Notes under the pieces: generated by a model | Told to the model about the DNA's origin: nothing | Database searches by the model: none | Seen by the model: the letters and a program-made list of their open reading frames with translations, nothing else | Part shown: positions 8,840 through 60,791 of the stretch, one piece after another | Numbering within the stretch: the stretch's first letter is position 1 | Layout: every line of letters starts with the position of its first letter | Translations under genes and position numbers: made by a program | Assembly (NCBI GenBank): GCA_965197525.1 | Contig: OZ240211.1 | Span: forward strand, 576,001 to 640,000 | Origin: Nitrosopumilus sp. | GTDB taxonomy: Archaea > Thermoproteota > Nitrososphaeria > Nitrososphaerales > Nitrosopumilaceae | Direction of reading: 5' to 3' | DNA: 64,000 nucleotides

Positions 8840-9989
8840 TTATTGAGGGATAAGCGAGGCGAAATTTTCCCTATAAAGCGAAGCGTTCTGAATGATAGTT
8901 TTCCATTTATTGTCGCCCTTGATGTCGATTCCTGCTCTAAGAGCTGGCGTATCTCCATCCAAACTCATGTGGGGTCTTATGTAGTTATGATATAATTTGA
9001 TGCCGTCTATTGCAGGAGAATCATCTTTTTTGAGTCCACGAAACACTTTCTCACGGTCTCTGAACTCCCCGTTTAGCCTTTCCTGTATGTTGTTGTTTGC
9101 TACTTGGTTTTTGAAATGTACCTCTTTGATGTGTTTGCTTGGCTTGTGTAAAAAATTCTTTGGTGCAAACTCTTTTTTGAAAGCGTCATTATACGCTGGT
9201 AGACCATCCGTTACAAAAACACTTGGAGTTTTCTTTGTTACATCTTTACCCATCTTTAACAAACTTTGTGCATCATGTTTGAACTTGCTATCAGCTACCT
9301 CTTGAGCAATCCAAAATCTTGTCTCGTTATCCATCATGGCAAACAAATATTTGCGATCTCCTTTGACTTTGAGCCATACCTCATCTGCGTGCCATTTCTC
9401 ACCTACTTGCGGTGTAATAGTGGACAAGTAATTATCCATAAGTTTGGTGTATTTTTTTACCCAGTTGTATATTGAGATATGGCTCATGTTGACACCTTGT
9501 AACTTTAGAAATTTTTGTACTCCTCTAATGGATTCGCCTGTAAAGTACAGTTGCATGGCACTTGTAATAACCTGGGGTGAGGCGTGCATCTTTTCAAATC
9601 CAAGATTGAATGAAAAATATTTTTTGCATTTCATACATTGGTATTTCTGTATAGAGTGGGTCTTGTTCTTTCTGATGCCTTTCTTTTTGATGTCTTCTGA
9701 CTTGCAGAACTGGCAACATGTAACTGTAATCTCATCAACTACTGTAATATTCTGTCTTACCTCTTCTCTAATCTTAAGACTAATTTCAACTGCGTGTATA
9801 TGTTTACAACATACTTTACAGAACTGATGATCTGGACACTGACATGTCCAACCTGCCTCTGTGGATACTATCTCATAGGTATTCTCTGATGACTGTGATT
9901 TTACAAAGTAACGGCTATCATCAACCCTTTCTATCTGGTTTTGTCTCTCTGCTATGATTTGACCTCTAGCCTGTCTTCGATTCGTACAT
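8840..9989 (-). CDS. IS6-family DDE transposase with N-terminal SWIM and Zn-ribbon domains; nearest upstream ATG is out of frame by 1 nt
   Basis: WHADEVW / FVTDGLPAY / NNNIQERLNG DDE motifs; frame stays open upstream of 9634 to 9988 (WTCQCPDHQFCKVCCKHIHAV SWIM; CQFCKS..YQCMKC); ATG at 9989-9987 is +1 relative to this frame. Confidence 0.85.
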
Positions 9990-22903: not shown

Positions 22904-23020
22904 GTAATCGAAACTCTCTATATATTTCATATAAACCTTGATTGAGTAGGTTCTGTGAAGTTATCGGGAGTTATATGTCAATTCCTAAAATGTATAAACC
23001 TCTAAACCGTAAGATATTCG

Positions 23021-24223
23021 TTGAAAGCGATAAAGTCAATATCACAGAAATATACGCCAAACTCTGATCTAATGGATATGATGAGTACATTCACAAAGAT
23101 GGTCAATCATTGCATCAAGATAGGGTTGAAAGAAGACACTCACAATATGAAGAGGTTGTCCATGTTATGTTATCATGAATTACGTAATTATGACATCCTG
23201 TCTTCATACAAACTAAATGCAATATCACGAGCTGCAGGCATGTTATCAAACAGAAAACAATCAATCAAACGAGGTGTCAGAATAAGAGATCTAATAGTCA
23301 AAAATCCCTTTATGACAAACTGTTACGGCATAAAACACAACGGTGCACTACTAACAATCCCATACAAGAGACATAACCCAATCAACATTTTACTCAACGA
23401 TCACACCCAAAAAATCCTATCTGATCCCGCCTTGACGGTGCGCTCGTTTTCATTGACTGCTCTGAACATCAGTCTTTGTGTTTCAAAAACAGTGCAAGAG
23501 ATCGAGTGCACCAAGAAAGTGGGAATAGACAGAAACCTAAGAAATGTGACGTGTGGGAATGAGAAAATGGTAACATTCTACAAGACAAACAAGTTACTGT
23601 CAATCAAAGAGAACACAATACATGCAAGAGCAGGATTCCACAGAAATGATCGCAGAAAGAAAGGTCAATTCTGGAAACAAAGACAGAGACGAATGAGCAA
23701 TAGAACAAAGCAGTACATCCACAGAATCTCAAAACATATTATTGACAATGCAGTCAAAAACAAGACTGCAATCGTCATGGAAAACCTGAAAGGAATAAGA
23801 AAACTGTACCGAAAAGGAAACAGTCAAGGTAACAAGTACAGACGTAGATTGAACGGGTGGCAATTCTACGAGTTACAACGCCAAATAGAATACAAAGCCC
23901 AATGGGTCGGGCTACCTCCAGTCGAATTTGTAGATCCAAAACGCACGAGCACGCAGTGTCCGCAATGCGGAAAGAAACTCCAAGAGGACATGCAACAACA
24001 TCGTAAAATGTCGTGCAATAATTGCGGTTTGTTTATGGACAGAGATATTATCGCTGCCATGAACATATCACGCAAACTGCCTCCTAGGTTTAGGGGTAGT
24101 AGAGATGACATATATGAAGCGCAGTCTGGCACTTTTGAGCCGGCGATGACGGAACCTAGCACACCATTGGTAATCCGAATAGTCGATATGTCAAAGTCAA
24201 GTTTAGGGGTTAACTCCCGATAA
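23021..24223 (+). CDS. tnpB: TnpB RNA-guided endonuclease (intact)
   Basis: VGIDRNL (RuvC-I), IVMENL (RuvC-II), TSTQCPQCG..CNNCG..DRDIIAAMNI (Zn finger, RuvC-III); TTG start; stop codon lies within the right TIR. Confidence 0.95.
   Translation: MKAIKSISQKYTPNSDLMDMMSTFTKMVNHCIKIGLKEDTHNMKRLSMLCYHELRNYDILSSYKLNAISRAAGMLSNRKQSIKRGVRIRDLIVKNPFMTNCYGIKHNGALLTIPYKRHNPINILLNDHTQKILSDPALTVRSFSLTALNISLCVSKTVQEIECTKKVGIDRNLRNVTCGNEKMVTFYKTNKLLSIKENTIHARAGFHRNDRRKKGQFWKQRQRRMSNRTKQYIHRISKHIIDNAVKNKTAIVMENLKGIRKLYRKGNSQGNKYRRRLNGWQFYELQRQIEYKAQWVGLPPVEFVDPKRTSTQCPQCGKKLQEDMQQHRKMSCNNCGLFMDRDIIAAMNISRKLPPRFRGSRDDIYEAQSGTFEPAMTEPSTPLVIRIVDMSKSSLGVNSR
24060..24222 (+). ncRNA. Putative TnpB omegaRNA (scaffold plus guide) overlapping the tnpB 3' end
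   Basis: Hairpins CTGCCTCCTAGGTTTAGGGGTAG and CTGGCACTTTTGAGCCGG covary with copies 2/3; boundaries approximate. Confidence 0.6.
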
Positions 24224-24236
24224 CTTCACAGAACCC

Positions 24237-24797
24237 ATGGAACGATACATGATCCACTTGAAGAATACAGGATTTGCACCTGAAAATGCTCGTGAGATAG
24301 TATACAAAGCTCGAGAACTAGCAGTAGATATGAATGCATCTGTAAGAATTGCCAGAGTTGCAAAAAAATTCGTAGAGCTTGATGTTGCAATAGAAAAAGA
24401 AGATCTCGATGAATTAGTTGCCAGATTTGCACCAATTGGCCCAATTGATAATGTCAGACACGTAATAGAAGAAGAGATCGACAAAGAACAAGGAATTCAA
24501 GATGGAATATTTTATTTTAACAGTGAGCGATTCTGGGAGAGTCATGAAGCGTTTGAGGGAGTATGGAAACAATGTTTTGGACGAGAGAAGGAACTGGTAC
24601 AAGGAATTATCTTGATGGCAGTGGCGTTTGCGCATGCACAAAAAAACGATGTCCCCATTGGAATAGGAATGCTTCGGAGAGTTTTAGAGAAACTAAATGA
24701 TTCTCCATCAATGTATCACCGCATTGATATAGACAGAATGAGAGATAAAGCACTGAATATGCAAAAGACAAACAGTTTGGCTATATTTGAGATTTAA
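24237..24797 (+). CDS. DUF309 domain protein
   Basis: GIFYFNSERFWESHEAFEGVW...QGIILMAVAFAH. Confidence 0.85.
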   Translation: MERYMIHLKNTGFAPENAREIVYKARELAVDMNASVRIARVAKKFVELDVAIEKEDLDELVARFAPIGPIDNVRHVIEEEIDKEQGIQDGIFYFNSERFWESHEAFEGVWKQCFGREKELVQGIILMAVAFAHAQKNDVPIGIGMLRRVLEKLNDSPSMYHRIDIDRMRDKALNMQKTNSLAIFEI

Positions 24798-40697: not shown

Positions 40698-42028
40698 GGT
40701 TCTGTTGGGTTAACGGGTGTTGACTGCTGAGGATCATGTCAGATTCCACAACCATCAACAACACATTGACTACTCGACTTTGACATATCGACTATTCGGA
40801 TTACCGGTCTGCAGGGTTCCGCCATCGCCGGTTCAAAAACACCGGACTGCGCTTCATGTATGCCATCTCTACTATCTCTAAACCTAGGAGACAGTTTGCG
40901 TGATATGTTCATGGCAGCGATAATATCCCTGTCCATAAACAAACCGCAATTATTACACGATGATTTACGATGTTGTTGCATGTCCTCTTGGAGTCTCTTT
41001 CCGCATTGCGGACACTGCGTGCTCGTGTTTTTTGGGTCTACTGTTTTTACAGGTAGCCCGACCCATTGGGCTTTGTATTCTATTTGTCTTTGTAGTTCAA
41101 AGAATTGCCATCCGTTCAATCTACGTCTGTATTTGTTGCCTTGACCGTTTCCTTTTCCGTACAGTTTTCTAATTCCCTTTAGATTTTCTAGAACAATGAC
41201 AGCCTTTTTCTTGACTGCATTGTCTACTATGTTTTTTGAGATTCTATGTATGTACTGTTTTGTCCTGTTTGACATTCTTCTCTGTTTTTCTTTGTAGAAT
41301 TGACCTTTCTTTCTTTTGTTGTTTCTACGGAAACTGGATCTGGCATGTATTGTGTTCTCTTTGATTGAGAGTAACTTGTTGGTTTTGTAGAATGTTACCT
41401 CTTCTTCATTTCCGCATGTGACGTTTCTAAGGTTTCTGTCTACTCCCACTGTCTTGGTGCACTCTATCTCCTGTACTTTTTTTGAAATACAAAGACTGAT
41501 GTTGAGAGCAGTCAATGAAAACGAGCGCACTGTCACGGTGGGATCAGACAGTATTTTTTGAGTATGTTCGTTGAGCAGGATGTTAATTGGATTTCTTGGC
41601 TTGTATGGAATTGTGAGTAAGGCGCCGTTGTGTTTTATACGGTAACAATTAGTGATAAACGGATTTTTGATAATTGGATCTTTTACTTTGAGGCCACGTT
41701 TGACTGACTGATCTCTGTTTGCCAGGATGCCCGCAGCTCGTGATATTGCATTGAGTTTGTATGAAGATAGGATGTCATAGTGACGTAATTCGTGATAGCA
41801 TAGCATAGACAACCGTTTCATGTTGTGGGTATCTTCCTTTAGCCCATCTTGATACAACGGTTAACCATGTCTGTGAACGTGATCATCATATCCATTAGGT
41901 CAGAGTTTGGTGTATGTTTTTGTGCTATTGACTTTATTGCTCTCAACAAGTATTGTACGGTTTAAGGTTATCTATATTTAGTGTTATGGGTATAATTTCT
42001 GATCAACACCCGTTAACCCAACAGAACC
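40698..42028 (-). mobile_element. Non-autonomous IS6-type TIR element carrying tnpB (copy 2, 1331 bp)
   Basis: Perfect 26-bp TIR GGTTCTGTTGGGTTAACGGGTGTTGA at 40698-40723 and 42003-42028; near-identical to copy 3; no TSD. Confidence 0.9.
40739..41949 (-). pseudogene. tnpB: tnpB with a 1-bp deletion near the 5' end
   Basis: TTTAGCCC-ATCTTG here vs TTTAGCCCTATCTTG in copy 3 (deletion at ~41845); explains 1331 vs 1332 bp; RuvC motifs intact. Confidence 0.88.
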
Positions 42029-58885: not shown

Positions 58886-59340
58886 AATCTGTATTCGTTG
58901 ACCATGTTTAAAACAGTTTAATATAAAACGATGTTTTGGGAATAATGATTAATTTATAACATTGATTCAAAATACATCAATCATCAAAATTCATGCCGTT
59001 TAGAACATGATAATTAGTTAAGAGAAAGAATAACCGCAGATAGTGTATTTTTTGTAATAGTATAACATATCACGGCGATGTAAGATTTTGGGTTTTAGAT
59101 AGGATCTCAGATGATCAGAAAGAGAGATGTCTGCTAACAAAAATAACTGGTTGGATGTTCTTCCATAGTTTGCCATAATTTACAAGTGCCAAAATGACGC
59201 AACAGATACAAAATAGATGTAATTCAAATCTACAAGATGCAAGTATTTCAATCACACAATTCCGGTAGATTACCACGTGAGGAGATGATCAGGGTACTGA
59301 GAAGCAACGAGCGATAAACAACACAATATCGTAGATTAAG

Positions 59341-60672
59341 GGTTCTGTTGGGCTAACGGGTGTTGACTGCGGAGGATCATGTCAGATTCCACAACCATCA
59401 ACAACACATTGACTACTCGACTTTGACATATCGACTATTCGGATTACCGGTCTGCAGGGTTCCGCCATCGCCGGTTCAAAAACACCGGACTGCGCTTCAT
59501 GTATGCCATCTCTACTATCTCTAAACCTAGGAGACAGTTTGCGTGATATGTTCATGGCAGCGATGATATCCCTGTCCATAAACAAACCGCAATTATTACA
59601 CGATGATTTACGATGTTGTTGCATGTCCTCTTGGAGTCTCTTTCCGCATTGCGGACACTGCGTGCTCGTGTTTTTTGGGTCTACTGTTTTTACAGGTAGC
59701 CCGACCCATTGGGCTTTGTATTCTATTTGTCTTTGTAGTTCAAAGAATTGCCATCCGTTCAATCTACGTCTGTATTTGTTGCCTTGACCGTTTCCTTTTC
59801 CGTACAGTTTTCTAATTCCCTTTAGATTTTCTAGAACAATGACAGCCTTTTTCTTGACTGCATTGTCTACTATGTTTTTTGAGATTCTGTGTATGTACTG
59901 TTTTGTTCTGTTTGACATTCTTCTCTGTTTTTCTTTGTAGAATTGACCTTTCTTTCTTTTGTCGTTTCTACGGAAACCAGATCTGGCATGTATTGTGTTC
60001 TCTTTGATTGAGAGTAACTTGTTGGTTTTGTAGAATGTTACCTCTTCTTCATTTCCGCATGTGACGTTTCTAAGGTTTCTGTCTACTCCTACTGTCTTGG
60101 CGCACTCTATCTCCTGTACTTTTTTTGAAATACAAAGACTGATGTTGAGAGCAGTCAATGAAAACGAGCGCACTGCCAAGGCGGGATCCGACAGTATTTT
60201 TTGAGTATGTTCGTTGAGTAGGATGTTAATTGGATTTCTTGGCTTGTATGGAATTGTGAGTAAGGCGCCGTTGTGTTTTATACGGTAACAATTAGTGATA
60301 AACGGATTTTTGATAATTGGATCTTTTACTTTGAGGCCACGTTTGACTGACTGATCTCTGTTTGCCAGGATGCCAGCAGCTCGTGATATTGCATTGAGTT
60401 TGTATGAAGATAGGATGTCGTAGTGACGTAATTCGTGATAGCATAACATAGACAACCGTTTCATGTTGTGGGTATCTTCCTTTAGCCCTATCTTGATACA
60501 ACGGTTAACCATGTCTGTGAACGTGATCATCATGTCCATTAGGTCAGAGTTTGGTGTATGTTTTTGTGCTATTGACTTTATTGCTCTCAACAAGTATTGT
60601 ACGGTTTAAGGTTATCTATATTTAGTGTTATGGGTATAATTTCTGATCAACACCCGTTAACCCAACAGAACC
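59341..60672 (-). mobile_element. Non-autonomous IS6-type TIR element carrying tnpB (copy 3, 1332 bp)
   Basis: 26-bp TIR at 59341-59366 (one mismatch) and 60647-60672; 8-bp TSD. Confidence 0.93.
59382..60593 (-). CDS. tnpB: TnpB RNA-guided endonuclease (intact)
   Basis: VGVDRNL, IVLENL, CPQCG..CNNCG, DRDIIAAMNI; TTG start. Confidence 0.95.
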   Translation of the reverse strand: MLRAIKSIAQKHTPNSDLMDMMITFTDMVNRCIKIGLKEDTHNMKRLSMLCYHELRHYDILSSYKLNAISRAAGILANRDQSVKRGLKVKDPIIKNPFITNCYRIKHNGALLTIPYKPRNPINILLNEHTQKILSDPALAVRSFSLTALNISLCISKKVQEIECAKTVGVDRNLRNVTCGNEEEVTFYKTNKLLSIKENTIHARSGFRRNDKRKKGQFYKEKQRRMSNRTKQYIHRISKNIVDNAVKKKAVIVLENLKGIRKLYGKGNGQGNKYRRRLNGWQFFELQRQIEYKAQWVGLPVKTVDPKNTSTQCPQCGKRLQEDMQQHRKSSCNNCGLFMDRDIIAAMNISRKLSPRFRDSRDGIHEAQSGVFEPAMAEPCRPVIRIVDMSKSSSQCVVDGCGI

Positions 60673-60717
60673 AGATTAAGTATCTTTTAATATCCAAATT
60701 CAGCCTCTAGTATTATT

Positions 60718-60791
60718 GCAGTTATAGTACAGTCTGGTTAGTACTCGTGCTTGCCAAGTACGTGACCCGGGTTCAAATCCCGGTAACTGCA
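60718..60791 (+). tRNA. tRNA-Gly(GCC)
   Basis: GCAGTTA/TAACTGC acceptor; anticodon loop TTGCCAA; GGTTCAAATCC. Confidence 0.95.

Follow-up and report, generated by a model that had tools for sequence, protein, structure and literature searches.

A covarying RNA fold at the 3′ end of tnpB, carried by elements with IS6-like ends in a sponge-associated Nitrosopumilus, probably represents a TnpB omegaRNA scaffold

A window of 64,000 nucleotides from a Nitrosopumilus genome (contig OZ240211.1, positions 576,001 to 640,000, forward strand) was analysed, in which three copies of a transposable element built around the nuclease gene tnpB are found. We conclude that the 3′ part of copy 1 (23921-24235 in window coordinates) and its equivalents in copies 2 and 3 very probably encode the scaffold of the TnpB guide RNA, the omegaRNA or right-end element RNA (reRNA). 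This reading is preferred because covariation, strand preference, copies devoid of an open reading frame (ORF), a drop in synonymous divergence (pS), conservation in distant relatives and an intact TnpB all agree with it. The RNA is of a known kind; it is the carrier, with its IS6-like inverted ends, that is unusual. The predicted sense-strand RNA would overlap the last ~100 codons of tnpB and reach the last base of the transposon, and its parts would be, in order, a 5′ helix that encloses a long hairpin, then hairpin 1, a long-range closing helix around both hairpin 2 and the inner helix, and finally a terminal stem-loop. Six unpaired bases, AGAACC, would then lead into a guide derived from the flanking DNA, and TnpB would bind the scaffold RNA. 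The copies of the window are as follows.

22949-24235, plus strand: copy 1 of the tnpB element, 1287 bp; the homology between copies begins and stops exactly there
22949-22973, plus strand: left terminal inverted repeat (TIR) of copy 1, GGTTCTGTGAAGTTATCGGGAGTTA, a perfect reverse complement (25/25) of 24211-24235
23021-24223, plus strand: tnpB ORF of copy 1, 400 aa, with the RuvC residues D (GIDRN), E (MENL) and D (DRD) and the motif CPQC...CNNC
40698-42028, minus strand: copy 2, with tnpB frameshifted near its 5′ end, an intact scaffold and no target-site duplication (TSD)
59341-60672, minus strand: copy 3, with an intact tnpB at 59382-60593

Identity is ~99% between copies 2 and 3, and ~84% between either of them and copy 1. 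The genome of the window, of Nitrosopumilus type and sponge-associated, is one 2.21-Mb contig, 99% complete, and holds ~33 full-length tnpB copies in addition to ~20 fragments or miniature copies. Further loci were taken from a related Nitrosopumilus metagenome-assembled genome (MAG; 14 loci) and from two other MAGs (one each).

To describe the fold, a 252-nt core was aligned over 58 distinct copies taken from the genome of the window and the related MAG (alignment A2). RNAalifold predicted 54 pairs in 12 helices, and 14 of these pairs showed double-sided compensatory change, as compared with 7.3±1.2 in shuffled alignments (0 of 500) and 2-6 when the partners were slid out of register. The same was seen for the alignment cells: 98.9% were paired (shuffled, 96.1%, 0 of 500; slid, 27-46%), and 113 were compensated (shuffled, 32, 0 of 500; slid, 5-15). 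The predicted fold spans ~23947-24229, the element itself ending at 24235, and the following parts are recognised in copy 1.

23921-24235, plus strand: inferred omegaRNA scaffold region, delimited by the pS drop, the breakpoints of miniature inverted-repeat transposable elements (MITEs) and the A2 fold
24022-24026 with 24071-24075, plus strand: helix TTGCG/CGCAA, enclosing a long hairpin (24030-24042 with 24054-24065)
24076-24100, plus strand: hairpin 1, with a conserved AGGUUU loop
24106-24117 with 24183-24193, plus strand: long-range closing helix TGACATA..TGA / TCG.TATGTCA, enclosing hairpin 2 and the inner helix
24120-24148, plus strand: hairpin 2 with a basal extension, clade-specific
24150-24177, plus strand: inner helix CGGA..CC / GG..TCCG, marked by covariation

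Individual pairs of A2 illustrate the pattern. Within the region of the TTGCG/CGCAA helix (24022-24075), pair 106:159 is CG in 47 copies, UA in 6 and UG in 4, and pair 112:151 is GC in 42 and AU in 7. Hairpin 1 shows UA 30 and CG 28 at pair 167:183, and CG 52, UA 4 and UG 2 at pair 169:181. In hairpin 2, the pairs 213:230, 214:229, 216:227 and 217:226 all switch between CG and UA or between GC and AU. The inner helix switches at pair 237:267 (CG 43, UA 15) with zero unpaired intermediates, and the closing helix at pair 193:283 (UA 56, GC 2).

A preliminary description of this DNA had drawn attention to the two hairpins, and its positions were found to be correct. Hairpin 1 is CTGCCTCCTAGGTTTAGGGGTAG at 24077-24099 of the plus strand and CTGTCTCCTAGGTTTAGAGATAG at 59537-59515 of the minus strand in copy 3, the changes between the two copies being C-G to T-A at pair 4:20 and T-G to T-A at pair 6:18. 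Hairpin 2 is CTGGC/GCCGG at 24126-24130 and 24139-24143, and CCGGT/ACCGG in copy 3; its innermost pair changes from C-G to T-A as had been described, and its second pair from T-G to C-G. The further claim that such compensation supports a scaffold finds backing in the 58-sequence alignment, where it is significant; in the copies on which it had been based it was not significant, as these amount to two lineages only, given the ~99% identity of copies 2 and 3. With the aligned homologues folded by RNAalifold, both hairpins were seen to covary across many copies.

Constraint on the RNA was also evident from the coding sequence. Compensating changes were often non-synonymous on both sides: the arms of hairpin 2 encode G/D/N and P/S/L/Q, and the CGGA/TCCG switch of the inner helix replaces T by M and, with it, R by Q. 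Among 16 intact genes, pS was 0.43-0.80 in codons 1-300, whereas over codons 301-390, taken as three successive stretches of 30 codons, it was 0.18, 0.32 and 0.21; pN/pS (non-synonymous over synonymous divergence) rose to 0.55-0.57 in the first and last stretch. The drop sets in near 23921, close to where the homology of three miniature lineages starts (~23934-23944). In 12 miniature or fragmentary copies without an ORF, 98.0% of the pairs were kept with 34 double-sided changes. Non-synonymous compensation, ORF-less copies that keep the fold and reduced synonymous divergence together place the constraint on the RNA and not on the protein; the suggestion of the preliminary description that RNA structure has been selected is thus supported.

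The computation favours a fold specific to the sense strand, with a consensus energy of -37.1 kcal/mol and 54 pairs as against -25.4 kcal/mol and 36 pairs for the antisense strand. G·U cells outnumbered A·C cells (317 vs 21), a count that is partly circular since the sense strand had served to choose the structure. A weak hint of transcription came from contigs of three sponge metatranscriptomes (Logan, one study), which overlap the scaffold region. Their summed depth over 23838-24201 exceeds that over the 5′ part, with contigs giving no level, strand or ends, and one contig of 195 nt corresponds exactly to 24041-24235, contig breaks coinciding with repeat boundaries.

The miniature elements, of 208-497 bp, are bounded by a left and a right repeat, between which the RNA scaffold follows 45-80 nt of AT-rich, TATA-like sequence, and several of them are bordered by perfect 8-bp duplications. 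Those in the genome of the window include 870887-871264, 803351-803738, 2108878-2109235, 143852-144348 and 1385894-1386101. They look like omegaRNA genes without tnpB.

The fold was also found outside the close family. A covariance model (R1) built on the 125-nt core of that family gave 149.8 bits on copy 2 (40776-40900) and on copy 3 (59419-59543), and it matched the 3′ ends of tnpB genes in other genera of the family Nitrosopumilaceae, whose proteins are only 34-58% identical.

Locus L040: 53.1 bits, E=5e-10
Locus L046: 37.4 bits, E=1.2e-6
Locus L039: 34.5 bits, E=5e-6
Locus L044: 33.6 bits, E=8e-6
Locus L048: 29.2 bits, E=7e-5
Locus L041: 20.0 bits, E=0.007

Three parts persist there under different sequence, namely hairpin 1, the closing helix and the inner helix. 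Hairpin 1, for example, appears as GGGUUGC/GCAAUCC in place of CUGCCCC/GGGGCAG, the closing helix as GAUGCA/UGCAUC in place of UGACAU/AUGUCA, and the inner helix as GACAGA/TCTGTC or GAAGG/CCTTC. Hairpin 2 is deleted in the distant relatives and in one MITE; being absent from those relatives, it is a clade-specific insertion. With the distant relatives added, 5 of 7 hairpin 1 pairs and 6 of 10 closing-helix pairs were compensated, and the pooled alignment (A4), whose fitting to the covariance model favours structure, gave 19 of 31 pairs compensated (shuffled, 11.0±1.9, 0 of 500; slid, 1-4).

The protein is consistent with a working partner of such an RNA. The tnpB ORF of copy 1 matched Cas12f1-like_TNB of Pfam (3e-20) and guided_TnpB of NCBIfam (124 bits, over the 100-bit cut-off), and its RuvC and zinc-finger part could be aligned to solved Cas12f and TnpB chains. 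RuvC D/E/D and CxxC...CxxC are intact in ~30 uninterrupted copies, and these catalytic motifs fit nucleases that are still RNA-guided, which the preliminary description had thought likely.

We then turned to the 3′ end of the RNA, where the following features are placed.

24196-24229, plus strand: terminal stem-loop, formed between bases just past the core and the inner half of the right inverted repeat (in copy 1, AAGTT/AACTT)
24230-24235, plus strand: AGAACC, unpaired, which ends the element and adjoins the flank
24236-24255, plus strand: putative flank-derived guide, suggested by the end of homology at 24235 and by analogy with TnpB omegaRNAs

Past the conserved ...AAAGTC the tails of the subfamilies are unrelated and 20-90 nt long, and of 41 distinct tails nearly all are predicted to form a terminal stem-loop, whose arms vary jointly with the type of TIR. 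The pairings include AAGTTAT/ATAACTT, GGTTAT/ATAACC, GGGT/ACCC and GTAATC/GATTAC, with (C)ACAGAACC left unpaired. In a crude fixed-register test of this stem, 69.5% was paired vs 28-46% after sliding. Inspection of the end sequences revealed no terminal-stem arm at the left end of copy 1. In all copies the likeness ends exactly after ...ACAGAACC, which is 24235 in copy 1.

The guide itself would be the 16-20 nt past the right end, that is, the 8-bp target duplication and the flank behind it. Perfect 8-bp TSDs were found in 27 of 43 copies with both ends. At 32 sites with a perfect TSD, position -11 was T/A in 31, position -10 was T in all 32 and position -9 was R in all 32, and in the reconstructed empty sites this TTR abuts the duplicated octamer at its 5′ end, and only on the left. 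Relatives at 37% and 46% protein identity have the same layout of TTR and duplication. In copy 3 the TSD is CTTAATCT, at 59333-59340 and 60673-60680, with ATA immediately upstream of the left one. If the guide is the right-end flank, it follows that the empty site reads as TTR plus a match to the guide, and the occupied left junction matches only 8 nt of it. Such a layout would be the homing geometry of TnpB: the one-sided 5′-TTR beside the duplication would be the target-adjacent motif (TAM), and the ribonucleoprotein (RNP) would recognise the empty site only. A reading of the left flank as an archaeal TATA box, with insertion behind promoters, was dropped as the main signal, the AT enrichment at -20 to -14 being weak (0.4-0.5 bits).

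Copies 1 and 2 have no 8-bp TSD (flanks 22937-22948/24236-24243 and 40690-40697/42029-42040), yet TTG is found at -12 to -9 on the left (CTTG and ATTG). In copy 1 the flanks are CTTG followed by ATTGAGTA on the left and CATGGAAC on the right, without a matching duplication. No reciprocal flank swap that would account for these two copies was seen by eye among the flanks listed, and their TSDs may have been lost through adjacent deletion, recombination or IS26-like intramolecular events. Elsewhere, two loci of the Nitrosopumilus MAG OZ245003.1 (L051 and L052, 1323880-1328064 and 1449933-1454117) hold inverted copies with exchanged flanks, TAGAAACT / TTATGTTA, which is the signature of a ~126-kb inversion via recombination between copies. 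At locus L102 (G076:C151), an element with an IS6-like transposase (TIR GGTGCTGT..., duplication CCAAAACA) is inserted directly after the ...ACAGAACC of another element, the position of the presumed guide of that neighbour.

The carrier was examined next. The TIRs of the tnpB elements are 25-28 bp long and begin GGTTCTGT. Matches to the Y1 TnpA (PF01797) or to a serine recombinase (PF00239) were absent from the 99%-complete genome of the window. A carrier of the IS200/IS605 type, including the IS1341 group, was excluded by the TIRs, the TSDs and the absence of PF01797, and one of the IS607 type by the TIRs, the TSDs and the absence of PF00239. What the genome does encode is IS6-like DDE transposases of ~390-400 aa with an N-terminal SWIM/zinc-finger region, which match PF13610 and, over full length, the IS6 model of NCBIfam at 104-123 bits, under its 125-bit cut-off. 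Two of them are flanked by the same kind of ends as the tnpB elements, and the repeat of the DDE element at 746475-748444 of the genome is identical over its first 18 nt to that of one tnpB subfamily. An IS6-like transposase of 403 aa lies at 746888-748096. At 6 of the 8 PF13610 (DDE_Tnp_IS240) loci of the genome such ends are absent; these loci may be decayed or domesticated. One member of the presumed helper's family lies in the window.

8840-9634, minus strand: remnant of an IS6-like DDE transposase (PF13610, 5.5e-14; IS6 model, 120 bits)

This remnant is 264 aa long in the ORF list and lies in an open frame of 382 aa, and no inverted repeats were detected around it. Judged from these sequences, the tnpB elements, which have no transposase of their own, most likely depend for their movement on an IS6-like DDE transposase that another locus of the genome supplies in trans. 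Other elements of the genome were also noted. A 3190-bp element at 699962-703151, the left part of which is covered by locus L033, has 51-bp inverted repeats of the GGTTCTGT type and carries an IS6-like transposase and, as cargo, two ORFs, one DNA methyltransferase-like and one HNH-like. Elements with different inverted repeats and 8-bp duplications lie at 340795-342464, 1061630-1063001 and 1063010-1064434.

The omegaRNA or reRNA of TnpB in OMEGA systems (ISDra2 and relatives) was reportedly described in 2021 by Karvelis and by Altae-Tran, and the RNA proposed here resembles it in being a predicted sense-strand, multi-helix RNA with a long-range closing helix, which overlaps the 3′ end of tnpB and reaches the right end. 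It is also similar in that homology stops where the guide would start, the RuvC site of TnpB is intact and a short T-rich motif lies to the left of the target. It differs in showing no sequence or Rfam match, in a last stem that uses the inner half of the TIR, in a presumed guide that begins with the 8-bp TSD and in a carrier other than IS200/IS605 or IS607. Elements that encode an omegaRNA without tnpB, known as PATE (palindrome-associated transposable elements) or MITE-like, are said to have been reported by Meers and colleagues in 2023; the 208-497 bp copies are likewise ends plus scaffold behind AT-rich, promoter-like sequence, unlike PATEs in their IS6-like inverted repeats and 8-bp duplications. 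In the IS6 family (IS26, IS257/IS431) the ends of IS257 begin GGTTCTGTTGCAAAGT and target duplications are of 8 bp. Similarly, the ends of the elements studied here begin GGTTCTGT, the TSD is of 8 bp and DDE transposases with the same ends occur in the genome; in contrast to that family, the transposases score 104-123 bits against a cut-off of 125 and have the SWIM/zinc finger, and the tnpB elements encode none.

The omegaRNA of OMEGA-system TnpB has been reviewed (PMC13565253). DDE-associated TnpBs have been arranged in six branches (DDE-1 to DDE-6) with inverted terminal repeats, alongside solo TnpBs that share such ends, with the 3′ end of tnpB usually <250 bp from the transposon end and IS630 named in the text (Altae-Tran et al., 2023; PMC10691335), and a review of 2026 gives ISL2, IS630 and IS1031 as partners of TnpB (PMC13565253). 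The elements described here agree with PMC10691335 in that tnpB lies between inverted repeats with its 3′ end near the transposon end and solo elements share the ends of transposase-bearing ones; they depart from DDE-associated TnpB as described in their IS6-like ends. No mention of TnpB with IS6-like partners or in Nitrosopumilaceae was found in the literature consulted, nor, for DDE-type TnpB elements, a covariation-supported omegaRNA fold or a TAM abutting the TSD.

Several observations weigh against an omegaRNA scaffold or the homing role built upon it. Halfway along hairpin 2, the most frequent subfamily carries a G·A mismatch (CCGGC/GCAGG). Deriving and scoring the structure on one and the same set of alignments inflates the pair counts, and so does the fitting of A4 to the model. 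Because the copies are related and whole hairpins could be transferred between them by gene conversion, the independent events are fewer than the cell counts suggest; event counts on a tree serve as a lower-bound argument only, since the unpaired columns give a weak tree and gene conversion may have occurred. Searches of Rfam at the gathering threshold and at E<=10 returned no family match, which does not exclude the omegaRNA class, omegaRNAs being diverse. The RNA libraries contribute one study's contigs, which are uninformative on starts, ends and strand. Finally, the TTR could reflect a target preference of the transposase instead of a TAM. As a control for this, 30 IS6-like transposase loci of 29 genomes were inspected; clear TIRs with a TSD were present in two, both without TTR, and two are too few to decide. 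A genome-wide scan for TIRs with TSDs likewise found too few non-tnpB elements to serve.

It might be argued that the fold is a cis-acting element for mRNA stability or translation, or a structure of the right end that the transposase recognises in single-stranded DNA or RNA, and no TnpB-bound scaffold at all. The terminal stem-loop does contain half of the right inverted repeat, and the lack of a known omegaRNA family match would suit such a signal. The sense-strand specificity and abundant G·U argue, however, against duplex or cruciform DNA signals; the ~300-nt span, the long-range helix and the exact location of a TnpB omegaRNA speak for the scaffold; MITEs without tnpB keep the fold, which can have no role in tnpB translation there; and the fold is conserved together with tnpB in relatives of 34-58% identity. 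We consider a cis signal unlikely. That the covariation is a by-product of coding constraint, ancestry or gene conversion, with RNA structure unselected, is hardly tenable and largely refuted already. It draws on the fact that the copies are paralogous and come from two genomes, that shuffles ignore relatedness and that the evidence of the preliminary description came from two lineages only. Slid-partner controls retain relatedness, yet fall to 27-46% paired and 2-6 compensated pairs. Moreover, both members of a compensating change are often non-synonymous, the pairs persist in copies without an ORF, synonymous sites are constrained and distant relatives retain the helices with different sequences.

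A last alternative accepts the omegaRNA and has TnpB repurposed as an RNA-guided regulator, or acting on the ends of its own element, in place of homing or empty-site cleavage. IS6-type transposition is replicative in the bacterial members studied, and transposition of that type would leave no excision gap for repair; the left flank, moreover, has TTR and an 8-nt match to the presumed guide. RuvC D/E/D is nevertheless intact in ~30 copies, and guides would differ from locus to locus, as for homing and unlike a fixed-target regulator. Such repurposing seems to us very improbable. On the preferred omegaRNA reading, we tentatively put forward a wider scenario as possible, short of probable: an IS6-like DDE transposon would have captured TnpB and its omegaRNA in Nitrosopumilaceae, the guide would start with the TSD, the TTR would be the TAM, and the RNP would cut only the empty site (TTR + N8 + flank), biasing the persistence of copies or driving their return after loss.

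The surroundings of the copies may be mentioned briefly. An ORF of 186 aa (24237-24797, plus strand) has its ATG one base past the right end of copy 1, which separates it from any former promoter; the ORF may now rely on read-through from the element. Beside copy 3, a tRNA gene (60718-60791, plus strand) lies 45 bp from the left end of the element, and the insertion point is just upstream of the likely TATA region of this tRNA.

Taken together, the analysis offers a covariation-backed guide-RNA fold for a TnpB lineage in DDE-type (IS6-like) elements, a class that the consulted literature mentions without an RNA fold. The scaffold, the position of the guide and the candidate TAM (TTR) are defined enough for reconstitution. 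If the wider scenario is true, the near-universal TTR would be an in-genome footprint of an RNA-guided nuclease on a prokaryotic transposon that makes TSDs, and if the TTR is indeed a TAM, the homing logic of the scarless IS605 and IS607 elements would extend to TSD-making transposons, as has been proposed for the eukaryotic Fanzors.

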